UHGV virus genome: UHGV-0098755
DNA: 64,000 nt
Strand: one strand, 5' to 3'
From: a virus
The notes beneath the pieces are model-generated. The model was given only the letters and a program-made list of their open reading frames with translations, made no database searches and was not told where the DNA came from. Made by a program: the position numbers and the translations under genes. Shown here piece after piece: positions 10,630 to 63,720 of this stretch; the first letter of the stretch is position 1; each line of letters begins with the position of its first letter.

Positions 10630-10654
10630 TTTATTCTCCAAATCTGTATCAGTT

Positions 10655-10712
10655 GATAGTTGTATAGTACCACAGTCCTTGTGGTATGTAAACCGTTTTG
10701 TGAAAAATTTTT
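10655..10712 (-). promoter_or_regulatory. Early promoter, conserved repeat family
   Basis: GTTTAC at 10688-10693 (RC), spacer palindrome TACCACAGTCCTTGTGGTA. Confidence 0.55.
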
Positions 10713-14920: not shown

Positions 14921-14939
14921 TTCAATATCCTCATTTGCC

Positions 14940-14980
14940 CAATTAATTATACCACATCCTTGTGGTAAAGTAAACTATTG
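14940..14980 (-). promoter_or_regulatory. Early promoter GTTTAC-N-TGTGGTATAAT with palindromic spacer
   Basis: RC reads GTTTACTTTACCACAAGGATGTGGTATAAT. Confidence 0.6.
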
Positions 14981-16795
14981 GCTCATCCATTCTTTACGAA
15001 GGTCAGCATTATCTCCCATGAGCATTTCAAAAAGTTCTTTCCAATTCTCAGGAAGTTTAACAACATCATATACTGGATTTTGAATCATCTCACGATATTC
15101 AGATTTTTCCAAAGAGCCAAGTCCCTTAATATAACGGATGTTATGTTTAGGTAGAGCATCTTTGGCACTCTCATATTCAGCGACTGTATAAAACCATTCT
15201 TGTTTTTTACCGACCTGAGCGATGATTACAGGAGTTTTGACAAAGCGAATTCTTCCTTGTTCAAACAGTTCTGGCCAATTACTGAAAAATCCGAGCAGAG
15301 AAGGATAAATGCTTCCTAGACCATCGTGGTCAGCGTCAGTCATAATAGCAATATTATGATAATTCAAGTTTTCGGCTTTTTCACCAAGAACTAATCCAGT
15401 GATTGCGCAAATATCAAACAGTTCTTTGTTTTTAAGCATATCAGCATATGACATACCCCAACTGTTGAGAACTTTACCACGTAATGGATAACCACCATGA
15501 AGTTCTTTATCACGAACATCAATAAGATATCCAATAGCAGAATCACCCTCAGTCAAGAAAAGAGTAGTATCAGCATCTTTACCACAAAGATTCGCTTTGA
15601 TATGTTTATGAACCTTAGCTTTAGAAGCCTTTTTAGCTGCTTTAGTTTCTGCTGCTTTTTCTGCCGCCAATTTACGAGCTAATGCTGCTTCAATAATCGG
15701 CATCAAAATCGCTTCATTATTCAAAATAGCACGTGAAATCTTTTTAGCATCAAGTTGAATATGACTACGGATTTCACCAAAAGGAGAAGTAAGTCGTTCT
15801 TTAGTTTGAGAATCAAATCGCATGTTTTTCATATCACGAACAAACATAACGATAGTCAAACATTCTTTAACGCGTGCTTTAGTTACATCAATTTTGAACT
15901 TGCGTTTGATTTGTGGAATAAGGTCTTCACAAATATCATCCATAACACAGTCAATGTGATGGCCACCATTCTTAGTATGAATGTTATTGACGTACGTCAA
16001 CTGACGAAAACCATCCGGTGAACGACCAACCGCAATAGAACAGTTTTCTTGTTCTTGAACGATAGCATGTTCATCATATTGGCGTGCATATTTCTTAAAA
16101 TTACCCTGAACCTTTTTACCATTAAAGGTAAATTGAATATCAGGATAAACTACTGCAAGTGTCTGGAGACGATCCAGTGTAATGTCAAGATAAACTTGGG
16201 ACAACTCATTAGTTTCAAATGACATAAAATCAGGAATGAAAGTAACACGAGTTCCTTTCCATTTTCCAGGAATATCTTCCCATGATTTATTTTCCATGCC
16301 ATTTGAACAACGAACTACAATATTATTTTGACCATCACCAGTTTCACCGACAAACATCACAGAAAAAATGTTTGTCAAACTAGAACCAACACCATTCATA
16401 CCGCCAGTGACGCGTTCTTTATCATCACCGAAGTTACCACCTGCTTTTGGAATAGTCCATGCAGCAACAGGACCAGGAATTTCTTCACCGGTAGGTGTTT
16501 TAACCATAGCCTGTGGAATACCGCGACCGTTATCTTCAACTGTTACTTGATTGTTTTTAATAGTAACATTAATTTTATTTGCGAATTTAAACTTAGTACG
16601 AATACCTTCATCTACTGAGTTATCGATAATTTCATCAATAAGCTTAACAAGACCAGGTACATACTGAACACTTTCCCATTTACCAAACAGAAAGCGCTCA
16701 TGCATTTCATTAGCTGAAGAGCCAATGTACATGCCGCTACGCTTTTTGATATGTTCAATATCGCTCAGAATTTTAATTTCATTCTTAATCATCAC
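14975..16795 (-). CDS. 39: DNA topoisomerase II large (ATPase) subunit, uninterrupted gene 39 (606 aa)
   Basis: GyrB-like GHKL ATPase plus TOPRIM in one ORF; no gene 60 split. Confidence 0.85.
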   Translation of the reverse strand: MMIKNEIKILSDIEHIKKRSGMYIGSSANEMHERFLFGKWESVQYVPGLVKLIDEIIDNSVDEGIRTKFKFANKINVTIKNNQVTVEDNGRGIPQAMVKTPTGEEIPGPVAAWTIPKAGGNFGDDKERVTGGMNGVGSSLTNIFSVMFVGETGDGQNNIVVRCSNGMENKSWEDIPGKWKGTRVTFIPDFMSFETNELSQVYLDITLDRLQTLAVVYPDIQFTFNGKKVQGNFKKYARQYDEHAIVQEQENCSIAVGRSPDGFRQLTYVNNIHTKNGGHHIDCVMDDICEDLIPQIKRKFKIDVTKARVKECLTIVMFVRDMKNMRFDSQTKERLTSPFGEIRSHIQLDAKKISRAILNNEAILMPIIEAALARKLAAEKAAETKAAKKASKAKVHKHIKANLCGKDADTTLFLTEGDSAIGYLIDVRDKELHGGYPLRGKVLNSWGMSYADMLKNKELFDICAITGLVLGEKAENLNYHNIAIMTDADHDGLGSIYPSLLGFFSNWPELFEQGRIRFVKTPVIIAQVGKKQEWFYTVAEYESAKDALPKHNIRYIKGLGSLEKSEYREMIQNPVYDVVKLPENWKELFEMLMGDNADLRKEWMSQ

Positions 16796-18607: not shown

Positions 18608-18692
18608 GTTATTTTCTGTATCAGTAGTTGATATTGATATAGTACCATAATCAACTACTGATGTATATAGTTTTATGAAAAAAATTTAAACT

Positions 18693-19181: not shown

Positions 19182-19257
19182 AGTTATCTCTCACTTGTTA
19201 AAAAGATTTTATACTTCACGGGACCATTATACTCTGGTCCCAAGAGTTTGTAAACTA

Positions 19258-19802: not shown

Positions 19803-20342
19803 TTATCTCATTTCAATAAAATCTACGAGTTCAGCATGCGATTTGCGGAACATTACTTGGTGCCCACCAATGATAACTTCATCTTCAGGAACTTCGTATA
19901 CAGCGAGATAAAATCCTTTAGAAGATAATTCTTCCCGTTCTTCTCGCGTGAACCATCTCATCATATCATATTCGCTAGCGAAAGCAAAATGATAAAGACC
20001 TATAAACCATCCTGGAATATGATATTCTACTCCAACATAATCTTTCTTGAACTTAGTATTAATTACTATATTAGCGTTTTTAACTAATAGTTTATCTTCG
20101 TGTGGTAAAGGAATTCTTTTATTATTATCGCTATGATGCATAAAATTAGGTCTGTCATAACCTACGTGTAATAGCCACTCTTCGCTCCATGAATCTATTA
20201 TACTCCTGTACGGCGTTATTTGAACACAAAGATTTCGACGTATTGTTATAGCATCTTCATAATCAAGAATACTAAACGATGATTCAACACGATAAATTTT
20301 CATTTTATTATCCTCAGTAGCTATGGTGTTATAATACCACAA
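19803..20342 (-). CDS. Hypothetical protein (179 aa)
   Basis: ORF. Confidence 0.5.
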   Translation of the reverse strand: MWYYNTIATEDNKMKIYRVESSFSILDYEDAITIRRNLCVQITPYRSIIDSWSEEWLLHVGYDRPNFMHHSDNNKRIPLPHEDKLLVKNANIVINTKFKKDYVGVEYHIPGWFIGLYHFAFASEYDMMRWFTREEREELSSKGFYLAVYEVPEDEVIIGGHQVMFRKSHAELVDFIEMR

Positions 20343-20366
20343 CTAACCGAGGAAGTAAACAACTTT

Positions 20367-31772: not shown

Positions 31773-31830
31773 AACAATCTCCTCATTTAACCAACAAGAC
31801 TACTATACCATAGTCTCGTCAGCTTGTAAA

Positions 31831-33258
31831 CTAAAATTTTAATTCATTCGCCAAAGCATCTAACTGAGCTCGAGTGGATTCATTTCTTTGATAGCGGTTC
31901 TGTTCAGCCTGAATTTGTTGTGAACCTGCTACTTCACTCACTTCAGTTGGAGTAGAATCTTGTTCAATTTCTACCCATTTCTGATTTCCTTTTTGAACAC
32001 CCATCAAAAACTTATTCCATTTATTCTTATCACCATATCGTGATTTGATTTGCTTAATGAGTTGTTGTTCAGCAGCTGCTAACTCCTCAGTTTCAATGAC
32101 CGCAAGCATAAAATCAGCTGTGGCTGGAAGACCAGCAGATTCTGCAATATCGCTCATGTTAACATCAGAAGAATCCCAAGCTTGCTTACCAACCTGTGCT
32201 GCAGTCCAAAGAACAGTTTCGGTTTCAACAGCCAGAGCACGCAATTCTTCTGCGATGGCTTTAACAGTTGTGTAACTATTTTCTGAGTAAACTCTGATGC
32301 GGCAAGATTTACAAATACCTAGATAGTCGACAATAATGATCGTTGGAACAAAATTCTTCTTGAGCTTCAATTCGTTTAAAAGCGATCGAAATGTATTAGC
32401 GTCTGCTCCACCAGTAGGATATTGCTTAACGATTAAACGACCGAGAGTAGATTTCTCACGCCATTTTTCCATTTTTCCTTTATATTCAGCGTAAGAAATA
32501 TGCCCATCATCAATGTCATCAAGAGAAACATCGAGCATATTAGCGTCAATACGTTTAGCACAGACTTCTTCTGCCATTTCCATTGAAATGTAAAGAACAT
32601 TATGACCGAGCTGTAAATAATCTGCTGCCAATGAACACAATCCTAATGACTTACCAACGTTAACACCAGCCATTAAAACGTTCAGTGTTCCAGTCTCAGC
32701 TCCGCCTTTAGTAATTTTATTTAGAATTTTGAGTTTAAATGGAACCTTACGAGCTTTATTCATATAAGATAGCCAACGTGCTTCATAGTCATCCATCCAA
32801 TCATGACCAACGTAGCTATCAAATGAAATTGATAATGCTTGGCGCATGATGTCAGGAATAGCACCTACATCTGGCATTTTCTTATTTCGTTTTTCCGGAG
32901 GAAGCTCAGCATTAGTTTGAATTTCGATTATTTTAGACGTAGCATTAAACATCGCCCTTTGCTGAACATATTTTTCTGTTTCTTTTACTAACCAGCTGTG
33001 GTCTTCCGGAGAATCAGCCAGTTTTGAAATAAGTGTTTTTACACCAGAATATTCTGTTTCAGTAAATGAACTATTTTCTAATGCAACATTTAACGCATTA
33101 ATAGATGGAACGCTATGATACTCATTGACATGAGATTTAATTAATTTGAATGTATTTTTAGCTGGACCACTTTCAAAATATTCTGAATCCATATATGGCC
33201 AAACTTTTGAAAAATAAGCTTGATCAAATATGAGATGAGAAAGAATAATTTCTACCAC
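31831..33258 (-). CDS. 41: Replicative helicase gp41 (475 aa)
   Basis: DnaB-like, Walker A GVNVGKS. Confidence 0.9.
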   Translation of the reverse strand: MVEIILSHLIFDQAYFSKVWPYMDSEYFESGPAKNTFKLIKSHVNEYHSVPSINALNVALENSSFTETEYSGVKTLISKLADSPEDHSWLVKETEKYVQQRAMFNATSKIIEIQTNAELPPEKRNKKMPDVGAIPDIMRQALSISFDSYVGHDWMDDYEARWLSYMNKARKVPFKLKILNKITKGGAETGTLNVLMAGVNVGKSLGLCSLAADYLQLGHNVLYISMEMAEEVCAKRIDANMLDVSLDDIDDGHISYAEYKGKMEKWREKSTLGRLIVKQYPTGGADANTFRSLLNELKLKKNFVPTIIIVDYLGICKSCRIRVYSENSYTTVKAIAEELRALAVETETVLWTAAQVGKQAWDSSDVNMSDIAESAGLPATADFMLAVIETEELAAAEQQLIKQIKSRYGDKNKWNKFLMGVQKGNQKWVEIEQDSTPTEVSEVAGSQQIQAEQNRYQRNESTRAQLDALANELKF

Positions 33259-50895: not shown

Positions 50896-51031
50896 GATCG
50901 CAAATCATGCGTTTATGTAACTTGAGTATAATATAGCAAACTTCAAAACTATTTACATGAGTAACACGAACAGCATTACCATTCACGAGATAATACTGTC
51001 CCTTTTTAATTTCTTTATCAACCACAACCAT
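50849..51031 (-). CDS. Hypothetical protein (60 aa)
   Basis: ORF. Confidence 0.4.
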   Translation of the reverse strand: MVVVDKEIKKGQYYLVNGNAVRVTHVNSFEVCYIILKLHKRMICDRAAFSSIAKEIKLHG

Positions 51032-57686: not shown

Positions 57687-57738
57687 GTTCTTCTCACTTT
57701 GTTAATGATTTATACTCCGAGCCATCCTTGGCTTTAAA

Positions 57739-58740
57739 TTACTTAATTAACTGTAAAGCTTGTTCCAGACGATCAAGACGATTAACGGATTCTTCCCAAA
57801 TCTTTTTAGCCTGCTCATATTCTTTCTGCGCTTTATTAGAAATTTCTAGAACTTCTTTATAAGCTTTTTCTAGTGCAATAACTTCTGGACGAATTTCTAC
57901 CGGTTCAGGTGAATCATCAAGATTATCCATTAGTTCCTCAAGGGTAGTTTCTTCTTTAGGAGTATTCACAACTTCATCACATTTTTGTTGGTAAATTTCT
58001 TTATCAGTCGGTGAGTACGCGCACTTTACTTCACGAAGGCTAATTACGAGTTTATATCCTTCCCAACCGCATATATTCTTAAAAGGATATGTATGAATAT
58101 TTTCTACTGTTTCCATACAAAGTAATGCGGTCTCTAATTGACGAGTTATAGTACTAGCAATTGAGAAAAATTTATTAATATTCTTTTGGTTAGTTTCTGG
58201 TGTAAAAAATCCATAATTCACAAAAATAGATACTTTATTTTTATCAAGTTCATATTCTTTTATGATAATCATATCAGAAGCCAAAGGATGAATTTGACGA
58301 TAATCGCCATAACATAATTTAGAAGCTGATTTTAGAATCTGTCCTTTGAAAAGTCTGAAATTACTAATCCAACGACGAGTAAAAATATTCTCAGGGTCTT
58401 CTTTATTATTAAGATGATAAGAATTAACATCACCAAACCAATTATATCCTACTACATCTTTGGTTCGTTTAATTTCTTTCCCAAAATTACCAAGAATATC
58501 CCGATTAACCAAATATGAAAGAAGACGAGACTCTTTAAAGGTTTTCTTGATAAGATCTTTATCTACACGGCTAGAAATTTTACGAATTTCATGAATAAAT
58601 TTAGTAGAAGAAACAATACTTGCATCAACACTATTGAGCCATTGATTGATAATAGAAAGAACGATATTTTGACCAAACATCGGTATAGCTTTATCATCAA
58701 TAACGCTATTGAATGATTTGATATATTCGTTACGAGTCAT
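57739..58740 (-). CDS. Paralogue-family protein with C-terminal coiled coil (about 333 aa from MTRNEY), nrdC.4
   Basis: SD GAGGAG before Met11; ORF track starts at 58770 inside the promoter -10. Confidence 0.55.
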   Translation of the reverse strand: MTRNEYIKSFNSVIDDKAIPMFGQNIVLSIINQWLNSVDASIVSSTKFIHEIRKISSRVDKDLIKKTFKESRLLSYLVNRDILGNFGKEIKRTKDVVGYNWFGDVNSYHLNNKEDPENIFTRRWISNFRLFKGQILKSASKLCYGDYRQIHPLASDMIIIKEYELDKNKVSIFVNYGFFTPETNQKNINKFFSIASTITRQLETALLCMETVENIHTYPFKNICGWEGYKLVISLREVKCAYSPTDKEIYQQKCDEVVNTPKEETTLEELMDNLDDSPEPVEIRPEVIALEKAYKEVLEISNKAQKEYEQAKKIWEESVNRLDRLEQALQLIK

Positions 58741-58797
58741 ATTAATCTCCTCAGTAGAAAGTAAGAACATTATACCACATCCTTGTGACGAAGTAAA

Positions 58798-59823
58798 CTA
58801 GTTTAGTGCATTTAGTGCATTGTTCAGTTTAGAACGCTGCTTTGTCAGATTTTGAACCCTTGACTGAGCTTGTTCTAACACCTTTTCAGCTTCTAGCACT
58901 TCATTGGTCGCTTTAACGAGTTCATCATCTACTGCCTTAAGAGACTTCTCAATCGCGTCAGCGTGCCATTTTTCAACAGGTTTAAGACTCGGATTTTCAA
59001 TAGGAAGAAAATTCACTTTATTGAATTTCCATGCATCCTTATTACCTGAACTATACATCCAAAATTTAGGATCGTTTGATAAGTAATTGGATAAATTTAA
59101 ATTTAAGTTATCTTGTACTTCTTGCTTTTTCTCTTGTGTAACTTCGTCCTTTCTCAAAAAATCATATTTAAATGAAACGATCATATCAAGTTCATATGTT
59201 GTCGTATCTAACTTAAATCGTTCAAAACGAGGTAAAATCTTAGATTGAACAGCAGAAACAACATCCATATACTTAAATGCTTCTGTCAACTGTGATTTAA
59301 GGCATTCACAAATTGAAAGAGAATTTTTAGTATTAGGCTTAAAGCTAATTCGTGCAGTTCTATTATTTTCTTTTAATGGTCTTACTTCCATTTGAAGAGT
59401 ATAACCATCAAATTTCAGATTCTTTAAGTTAATATCAGAACCTTTTAATCGACTAGCAGTAGACAAAATTTGTTTTAATTGTCTACGGAACAGAGCAATA
59501 AATCTCCATTCAAGACGATAATGATTTGGATTAAAAAATCCTGTTGATAAATCGACCTTACTTTGACCAACGCCTTGAACAAATAGAGGATTTTTATAAT
59601 CAACAGTTTTACAGAAATCGGTGAGCTGCTCACGAGCAGTCATTTGAGTAATATACCCCGCTTTACTAAAATGACGTAACCATTCACTGCTATTCATATA
59701 CTTAAAGTGAATATCACGATTAACTTTATCAGGGTCTAAATTATTTTGGCACAAAAATGTCATAACATCACGAGTATAACTGGCATTACGAACCATATCT
59801 TCAATTTGAGAACGAGTTTTCAT
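58798..59823 (-). CDS. Paralogue-family protein with C-terminal coiled coil (341 aa), nrdC.5
   Basis: N-terminus MKTRSQIEDMV. Confidence 0.55.
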   Translation of the reverse strand: MKTRSQIEDMVRNASYTRDVMTFLCQNNLDPDKVNRDIHFKYMNSSEWLRHFSKAGYITQMTAREQLTDFCKTVDYKNPLFVQGVGQSKVDLSTGFFNPNHYRLEWRFIALFRRQLKQILSTASRLKGSDINLKNLKFDGYTLQMEVRPLKENNRTARISFKPNTKNSLSICECLKSQLTEAFKYMDVVSAVQSKILPRFERFKLDTTTYELDMIVSFKYDFLRKDEVTQEKKQEVQDNLNLNLSNYLSNDPKFWMYSSGNKDAWKFNKVNFLPIENPSLKPVEKWHADAIEKSLKAVDDELVKATNEVLEAEKVLEQAQSRVQNLTKQRSKLNNALNALN

Positions 59824-61137: not shown

Positions 61138-61192
61138 AATAATCTCAATTAAAAGGGCTTAGAACCATTATACCATCCTTGGTATAAAGCGG

Positions 61193-63165: not shown

Positions 63166-63222
63166 TTTTACATTTGTTTTGATAGGGTAATAGTATCACA
63201 CTACTACCCTGCTGTAAACAAT

Positions 63223-63650: not shown

Positions 63651-63720
63651 GTTTGTTTTGATAGTTGTATAGTACCATAAAGCTTTATGCTTGTAAACCA
63701 CTTTGTGAAAAATTTTTGAA
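63651..63720 (-). promoter_or_regulatory. Early promoter with 14-bp palindrome CATAAAGCTTTATG in spacer
   Basis: Conserved repeat family; GTTTAC (RC) at 63692-63697. Confidence 0.5.

Follow-up and report, generated by a model that had tools for sequence, protein, structure and literature searches.

The early promoter upstream of rIIA.1 in a T4-like phage raises the question of why a perfect inverted repeat should lie inside a promoter, with one arm overlapping its -10 element. We analysed this site within a window of 64,000 nucleotides (virus genome UHGV-0098755), which derives from a Tequatrovirus with about 96-97% identity to many coliphage records. All early genes and promoters in the window are on the minus strand, and around rIIA/gene 39 a window position corresponds approximately to the T4 coordinate plus 12,528. 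The rIIA.1 early promoter (14946-14975, minus strand) is composed of GTTTAC at 14970-14975, an 18-nt spacer and TGTGG-TATAAT with the -10 hexamer at 14946-14951, and its T4 counterpart at 2458 is identical. The repeat TACCACA-N4-TGTGGTA reported here in a preliminary description was recovered as a perfect 7 bp dyad at 14950-14967, which in minus-strand RNA reads UACCACA-AGGA-UGUGGUA (5’ arm 14961-14967, N4 loop 14957-14960, 3’ arm 14950-14956; axis at about -19.5). Its 3’ arm overlaps the TG-extended -10, and the RNA hairpin has a minimum free energy (MFE) of -8.2 kcal/mol, with a z score of -2.26 against dinucleotide shuffles. The TAG stop codon of the upstream topoisomerase gene 39 (14975-14977, minus strand; unsplit, 606 aa) extends over the first base of the -35 hexamer, and the promoter therefore occupies the 54-nt gap to rIIA.1. 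The Shine-Dalgarno GAGGA and the ATG (14920) of rIIA.1 lie outside the hairpin, GAGGA about 20 nt beyond it. At this locus the topoisomerase large subunit is a single 606-aa ORF (14975-16795, minus strand), and T4’s gene 60/39 split, mobA and the gene 60 translational bypass are absent.

To define how the focal repeat is distributed, whole phage genomes were used for comparison, as an IMG/VR search with the rIIA.1 protein yielded only 5 near-identical loci; a search with a degenerate promoter pattern returned mostly unrelated matches and one real instance. Across about 500 Tequatrovirus records the sequence GTTTACtttACCACAAGGATGTGGTAtaAT hardly varies, and phages of Klebsiella, Erwinia and Enterobacter also contain the 18-bp dyad with its loop. 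Accompanied by its leader (AAATGAGGATATTGAAATG), GTTTACtttACCACAAGGATGTGGTAtaAT is found in other genera at other gene junctions: before cef in a Jiaodavirus, after the helicase stop in a Winklervirus (9 pairs) and after the DNA polymerase stop in a Karamvirus (loop CGGA). All eight instances of TACCACA-AGGA-TGTGGTA, from four genera, are located 0-19 nt past a stop codon. The cassette common to the four genera (window 14921-14975) also spans the leader and Shine-Dalgarno sequence (AAATGAGGATATTGAAATGAAA), and the genes downstream of it are unrelated (rIIA.1, spackle and a hypothetical gene).

Two further copies within the window had been proposed. The one at 10668-10686, which had been placed 1 nt away, proved correct: it is nested in the early promoter 10664-10693 (minus strand; -10 TACTAT), 19 nt past the stop of a denB-like gene, and forms the 7 bp hairpin UACCACA-AGGAC-UGUGGUA (MFE -8.1, z -1.97). 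In its T4 copy at 167086 the innermost pair is lost, to A.C, leaving a 6 bp stem with a 7-nt loop. At the early promoter 58769-58798 (minus strand) the site is present as well, in degenerate form: its 5’ arm has decayed from TACCACA to CGTCACA (CGUCACA in RNA), and over 58773-58789 only CACA/TGTG forms Watson-Crick pairs, the remainder being U.G/G.U (MFE -5.9, z -0.95). The T4 copy of this site at 50973 carries the arm UGCCACA and retains 7 pairs, including one G.U. The arm variants at T4 50973 (A:U to G.U) and window 58798 (C:G to U.G) turn Watson-Crick into wobble pairs. Resemblances to a CRP site, a DnaA box and a lambda operator half-site failed on arm orientation or spacing.

To assess whether such dyads exceed chance, early promoters were called with a weight matrix blind to the spacer and start region, which gave 22 in the window, 37 in T4, 21 in RB69 (Mosigvirus) and 21 in a Klebsiella Jiaodavirus. 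Column-permuted promoter alignments served as controls, and dinucleotide shuffles were used for single sites. The comparison suggested in the preliminary description, dyad enrichment between -35 and -10, gave a divided answer. Perfect repeats of at least 7 bp in the spacer plus -10 occurred in 3/22 window promoters versus 0.13 expected from column permutation, two of the three being paralogues, but the folding energy of this region in T4 was not significant (P 0.44-0.75) and in the axis scan the position -19.5 was not enriched (2 promoters versus 0.68 expected). The spacer-only dyads reduce to two paralogous families, ACCACAAGGA(C)TGTGGT with three T4 copies and CATAAAGCTTTATG with two, and as a class they are hardly above chance.

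Extension of the analysed region to -33..+9 revealed a marked excess of folding in all four promoter sets. The mean MFE was -6.65 in T4 (permuted -3.92 +/- 0.33), -5.75 in the window (-3.93 +/- 0.41), -8.18 in RB69 (-3.94 +/- 0.43) and -9.23 in Jiaodavirus (-4.90 +/- 0.45), an excess of 9-10 SD in the latter two, and 14 of the 37 T4 promoters reached -7 kcal/mol or below compared to 3.6 expected. A scan for symmetric runs of at least 7 peaked at an axis of -11.5, with 7 promoters in T4 versus 1.35 expected and 7 in RB69 versus 1.06. The mode of the helix axis is -11.5 in three genera, which places the -10 hexamer in the loop: in the typical element the spacer is paired with -7..+7 and TGnTATA is left unpaired. 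In T4 early promoters long stems are found at two places only, -60..-80 and -8.5..-19.5, and about half of the early promoters of T4-type phages, in three genera, carry a hairpin nested in this way. No such enrichment was detected among 56 experimentally mapped T4 middle promoters taken from a published table (PMC2988021), whose mean was -3.87 versus -3.57 and of which not one reached -10. The dyads had been assigned to early and middle promoters alike; this holds for the early class and not for the middle one. An orientation-free TCCT/AGGA spacer element near -21 was also considered, and positional counts gave no clear support for it. In three T4 early promoters a symmetric run of at least 7 is centred near +22.5 (0.15 expected), around the ribosome-binding site of the next gene.

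The preliminary description had listed six inverted repeats. All of them exist, with coordinates off by up to 6 nt and with differing geometries. Beyond the three copies of the focal family, GGGACCA-N8-TGGTCCC had been placed in a spacer at 19214-19235. It is located at 19220-19241, and its arms flank the -10 instead. There it forms the core (GGGACCA, 19235-19241 on the plus strand; TGGTCCC, 19220-19226 on the plus strand) of a minus-strand hairpin at 19213-19247 with MFE -15.5 and z -3.67, nested in the early promoter 19226-19255, the homologue of T4 P-motB; the 8-nt loop contains TATAA and the axis is at -11.5. The repeat reported at 61169 is a real 8-bp hairpin at 61168-61187 (minus strand), UUAUACCA-AGGA-UGGUAUAA in RNA and TTATACCA-N4-TGGTATAA on DNA (z -1.74), and it directly follows a stop codon as at the other sites. 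Its promoter is of the middle type, with a MotA-box-like CGCTTTA, N12 and TATAAT (61167-61172), and is a homologue of T4 PnrdC.7. As middle promoters are not enriched as a class, this dyad was rejected as a class feature and is considered within chance. The 14-bp palindrome CATAAAGCTTTATG is perfect and lies at 63676-63689, 2 nt from the position first given, in the spacer of the early promoter 63669-63698. It is AU-rich, forms no stable hairpin (z -0.81), contains a HindIII site and has two identical copies in T4 (55384, 146875). Promoters carrying it already have a GC-rich terminator hairpin of their own upstream, and nested hairpins offer no explanation for this palindrome.

The strongest dyads of the window (31789-31824, 18624-18658, 63184-63210 and 20316-20348, all on the minus strand) had not been listed before. 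The first of these is the strongest nested hairpin of the window, with 15 pairs, the loop GGUAUA, MFE -17.9 and z -5.41. It sits inside the early promoter 31802-31831 (P-dmd), a promoter that begins at the stop codon of the gene 41 helicase homologue, and differs from T4 20612 at two positions, both of which convert a Watson-Crick pair into G.U. The hairpin at 18624-18658 (MFE -12.4, z -3.74) is nested in the early promoter 18639-18668, 24 nt past the upstream stop, and that at 20316-20348 (MFE -11.6, z -2.56) in the early promoter 20331-20360, the T4 P-motB.2 homologue, 6 nt past the upstream stop. The hairpin at 63184-63210, AGGGUAGUAGUG-UGA-UACUAUUACCCU, belongs to the early promoter 63190-63219 (MFE -15.2, z -3.35). 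This promoter with its nested hairpin (63184-63219, AGGGTAGTAGTGTGATACTATTACCCT) is present in T4 at another locus, 146107-146143, consistent with promoter cassettes moving as units. A mini-hairpin with an AGGA loop, AGCCA-AGGA-UGGCU, occurs at 57720-57733 (minus strand) immediately past a stop codon (57739), where the sequence resembles a degenerate promoter, and its RB69 homologues read AACCA-AGGA-UGGUU, an A:U to G:C compensatory change. The surrounding 57720-57760 (minus strand), ATTTAA..GCCAAGGATGGC..TATAAA, resembles three RB69 promoters (GTTTACaaCCAAGGATGGttggagTATAAT) and may be a decayed promoter that has retained its hairpin.

Which property of the dyads is conserved was addressed by comparing the arms. 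Only the TACCACA-AGGA-TGTGGTA family shares arms among dyad-bearing promoters; elsewhere they are unrelated (GGGACC, GACAAGACTAT, AGGGTAG, GGTAGAG, GGCCATGA). Since the promoters are paralogous cassettes, counts overstate independence, and T4, RB69 and Jiaodavirus together provide at least 15 independent arm sequences rather than 36. When 79 promoters were aligned without gaps in the -11.5 register, 48.7% of the cells were paired compared to 45.6 +/- 1.0 after shuffling, and the covariation score was 0.222 versus 0.185 +/- 0.011, values reached in none of 500 shuffles in either case; the score was computed on paralogues without a phylogeny model. All slid registers gave lower pairing (29-43%). 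Individual pairs of promoters illustrate the same pattern. Flanks and loop are the same in T4 7215 (GGGACC/GGTCCC) and RB69 72055 (GAGAGC/GCTCTC), whose arms are set apart by two compensatory pairs; a compensatory change from C:G to T:A separates T4 20612 from 57990, and two compensatory pairs distinguish the T4 GACAAGACTAT family from the RB69 GATAGGACTAT family. The stems of the AGGA-loop hairpins (CCA, CACCA, AGCCA, ACCACA, UAUACCA) likewise covary, at offsets from -19.5 to -23.5. Compensatory changes in a fixed register thus exceed both the shuffled and the slid controls, as expected of a conserved RNA structure, and the property conserved in these comparisons is pairing and not sequence.

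The consensus itself is partly self-complementary about -11.5, as seen from the pairing that remains after shuffling (45.6%) compared with the 29-43% of the slid registers, and this could point to a promoter-linked role. T4, RB69 and the Jiaodavirus all conserve the start region at -3..+8, (C/A)C-T-A-TCAAC (e.g. window 10652-10663). The spacer contains a weak consensus complementary to it, ATAGG at -24..-20, which renders the promoter consensus partly palindromic about this axis. Compared with the antisense strand, sense hairpins look more stable and richer in G.U, with 28 G.U versus 10 A.C overall. This excess is mainly due to consensus-fixed G:T pairs (-16:-7, -14:-9); outside the conserved -17..-6 block the counts are 8 G.U versus 5 A.C (p=0.58). 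An Rfam search at the gathering threshold gave no match anywhere in the window. The T4 record NC_000866 states in a note at 133300..133313 that this sequence is the inverted complement of the one reported earlier, correcting the early promoter Pe133295. The 14 nt in question are exactly those enclosed by the 7-bp arms (GGTAGAG/CTCTACC) of a nested palindrome (133293-133320), so that the earlier report reflects either a sequencing error or an inversion between the arms.

The presence of a nested hairpin depends on the distance to the upstream stop codon. With a threshold at or below -7, and considering the 70 intergenic promoters of T4, RB69 and Jiaodavirus, a nested hairpin was found in 31/49 promoters with the upstream stop no more than 25 nt from the -35, versus 5/21 otherwise (Fisher p=0.004). 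In the window alone the corresponding values are 7/12 and 0/8. The relation is not strict: no hairpin is present at about one in three tight junctions, and T4 promoters 7215 and 57990 carry nested hairpins despite 59-76 nt of upstream room. We also determined the strongest hairpin between the upstream stop and +9 at each junction. Where at least 38 nt are available, it begins 1-10 nt past the stop, is centred at -60..-82 and is GC-rich, with CUUCGG loops and a T run; these upstream hairpins average 55% GC and 4.5 T in the 8-nt tail. Where the room does not exceed 24 nt, the strongest hairpin lies within the promoter, centred between -7 and -24.5 and at -11.5 in 17 of 36 cases, and has 40% GC and 1.6 T in the 8-nt tail, i.e. 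no U tract. The two kinds are of similar stability (-12.2 for nested versus -13.5 kcal/mol for upstream hairpins). A terminator consensus scan did not call the nested hairpins as terminators; given this and the lacking U tract, they are not functionally the same as the upstream hairpins that they appear to replace. In RB69, the longer gaps that follow genes 39 and 41 contain a CUUCGG terminator hairpin, with a separate promoter in addition after gene 41, whereas in T4 and the window, where the gap is 54-58 nt, the hairpin lies within the promoter.

To account for the repeats, their enrichment, the covariation of their arms and their dependence on stop-codon distance, we infer that the dyads act in RNA. 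We consider it somewhat probable that they are the arms of intercistronic hairpins of the upstream message, similar to those of promoter early stem-loop (PeSL) elements, nested in the promoter and folded in read-through RNA. According to this explanation, T4-type phages would tend to separate the stop of one gene from the next ribosome-binding site by one stable stem-loop. In 40-80 nt of non-coding DNA, this stem-loop would be the GC-rich, CUUCGG-loop terminator located between the stop and the early promoter. If the preceding gene ends at the -35 or within about 25 nt of it, the promoter fills the gap and the hairpin would use the positions which the promoter leaves free. Its 5’ arm would then lie in the -35/-10 spacer and its 3’ arm in the extended -10 (TGTGGTA at the focal site) or, more often, in -7..+7, with the -10 hexamer in the loop and the axis at -11.5. 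With the -35 hexamer and TGnTAnnnT fixed, only pairing of the spacer with the stretch past the -10 can give a long stem, which accounts for the mode at -11.5; a short stem could take TGTGGTA itself as 3’ arm, as in the focal case. A range of centres from -7 to -24.5 is what pairing as the sole requirement would predict. Sense RNA that originates from upstream promoters and reads through the nested one would form the hairpin, while RNA initiated at the nested promoter would lack the 5’ arm and thus could not form it. Its role would be that of a 3’-proximal structure of the upstream cistron, acting as a barrier to 3’ exonucleases or as a processing boundary and possibly hindering Rho loading. 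As the nested hairpins have no U tract, the role proposed here is not termination, which their sequence makes unlikely. Single-strand hairpin formation, one of the possibilities raised in the preliminary description, agrees with the conserved pairing and with the way in which the presence of the hairpins tracks the proximity of the upstream stop codon.

The other possibility raised there, an operator for a dimeric DNA-binding regulator, was not borne out. At most it could apply to the TACCACA-N4/5-TGTGGTA family, where the near-invariance of the 18-bp dyad in Tequatrovirus records, its recurrence in phages of Klebsiella, Erwinia and Enterobacter and its overlap with the extended -10, a position from which a repressor would exclude RNA polymerase, are all features that an operator would have. 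Even for this family we regard it as highly improbable. The variants at T4 50973 and window 58798, which in RNA exchange Watson-Crick for G.U pairs, would be half-site mutations in DNA; the related AGGA-loop hairpins have different, covarying stems at shifting offsets; all instances of the family lie just past stop codons; and reviews of T4 transcription describe no repressor of early promoters. For the dyad-bearing promoters in general, at least 15 unrelated arm sequences that differ between promoters and covary imply that there is no common operator half-site. The same covariation bears on a second explanation, that the pairing has no selected function and is a by-product of cassette duplication and shuffling (PeSL-type recombination) or of templated (quasi-palindrome) mutation, or that the repeats are recombination sites only. 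Such recombination is documented (PMC2839356), identical cassettes are found at more than one locus and in more than one genus (window 63219 and T4 146143; the focal family in four genera), and the 14 nt formerly reported as inverted between the arms of a T4 nested palindrome would fit. Duplication does not create complementarity, however, and the arms covary by compensatory double changes while flanks and loop stay unchanged. The enrichment is moreover repeated in three genera with unrelated arms, and presence of the hairpin tracks stop-codon distance, so that we regard this explanation as unlikely.

Similarly doubtful is a DNA-level element, in which the -10-centred palindrome would extrude as a cruciform or fold in single-stranded DNA and thereby alter early-promoter activity, e.g. 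in shut-off. Several observations are in line with it: the axis mode is exactly -11.5 in three genera and the consensus is self-complementary about the same axis, the enrichment is confined to early promoters and absent from middle ones, and the 8 G.U versus 5 A.C outside the conserved block are compatible with an element that is symmetric in double-stranded DNA. According to reviews, the mechanism of early-promoter shut-off is not understood (PMC3014915). Nevertheless, such an element predicts neither the dependence on stop distance nor the complementary distribution with upstream terminator hairpins. The axes spread from -7 to -24.5, half of the early promoters, including those with the strongest consensus, have no dyad, and extrusion would destroy the -35/-10 geometry. 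In its most specific form, -10-centred palindromes would be a DNA-level switch in about half of T-even-type early promoters: superhelicity or strand exposure would shift a few minutes after infection with the phage topoisomerase and the onset of replication, the arms would extrude or fold, and the -35/-10 geometry would be broken. If true, this would bear on the abrupt, still unexplained shut-off of early transcription, to which we think it very improbable that such a switch contributes.

Among described systems, PeSLs are the closest to the nested hairpins. [quoted passage not shown] The focal site has the sigma-70-like PeSL promoter with its A/T-rich upstream region, GTTTAC-N18-TAnnnT with TGn in an intergenic position before a small gene, and its cassette and leader are shared across genera. 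In the PeSL papers (PMC2839356, Arbiol et al. 2010; PMC4122927, Comeau et al. 2014), which analysed only larger intergenic spaces, the stem-loop immediately precedes the promoter. The focal site and its relatives have the stem-loop within the promoter, and the published layout is limited to promoters that have 38 nt or more of upstream room. In contrast to the PeSL stem-loop, which is G/C-rich and a terminator (PMC2839356; PMC4122927), the nested hairpins have 40% GC and no U tract, and their arms are inside the promoter (spacer and extended -10, or spacer and -7..+7). Known cases of a promoter within a hairpin in T4 concern late genes and sequester the ribosome-binding site; hairpins at e, soc, 49, I-TevI and segB enclose a late or middle promoter and do so in read-through RNA (PMC2988022). 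They share with the nested hairpins that long transcripts fold and transcripts from the inner promoter lack the 5’ arm. Theirs pair with the Shine-Dalgarno of the late gene, whereas the nested hairpins belong to early promoters and stop at about +3..+7, upstream of the Shine-Dalgarno, in 5’ UTRs of about 20-25 nt.

More distant parallels share single features. Like intrinsic (Rho-independent) terminators, the nested hairpins are stable stem-loops a few nucleotides past a stop codon, but they have neither a G+C-rich stem nor the U tract. With lambda-type operators overlapping the -10 they have in common a 7+7 bp dyad symmetry over the -10 region; the nested arms differ from such operators in that they are not conserved between promoters and keep pairing, not sequence. 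In phage N4, a small DNA hairpin is the promoter recognition element for the phage-encoded virion RNA polymerase. This resembles the present case in that a small DNA hairpin is found at a phage early promoter, whereas T4 early promoters are read by the host sigma-70 holoenzyme through the -35, TGn and -10. Dyads or hairpins in early promoters are not described in the T4 transcription and post-transcription reviews, the five-genome comparison and the PeSL papers; older work (Liebig and Rueger 1989; Miller et al. 2003) was outside this scope. Cassettes of promoter and stem-loop are already known, the nested arrangement is a variant of them, and a prior description in the older T4 literature is possible.

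If the dyads are intercistronic hairpins nested in promoters, there are consequences for annotation, since such hairpins are invisible to terminator finders, and for the engineering of T4-like phages and promoter parts, where a changed spacer may make the upstream message more or less stable. For models of early mRNA decay they would provide a defined and mutable element. Nested pairing would explain why the spacers of early promoters, hypervariable among paralogues, are almost unchanged among orthologues, why the promoter consensus is partly self-complementary about -11.5 and why the cassettes move as units. The same 35-40 bp would then encode both a strong sigma-70 promoter and a structured RNA boundary for the preceding gene.
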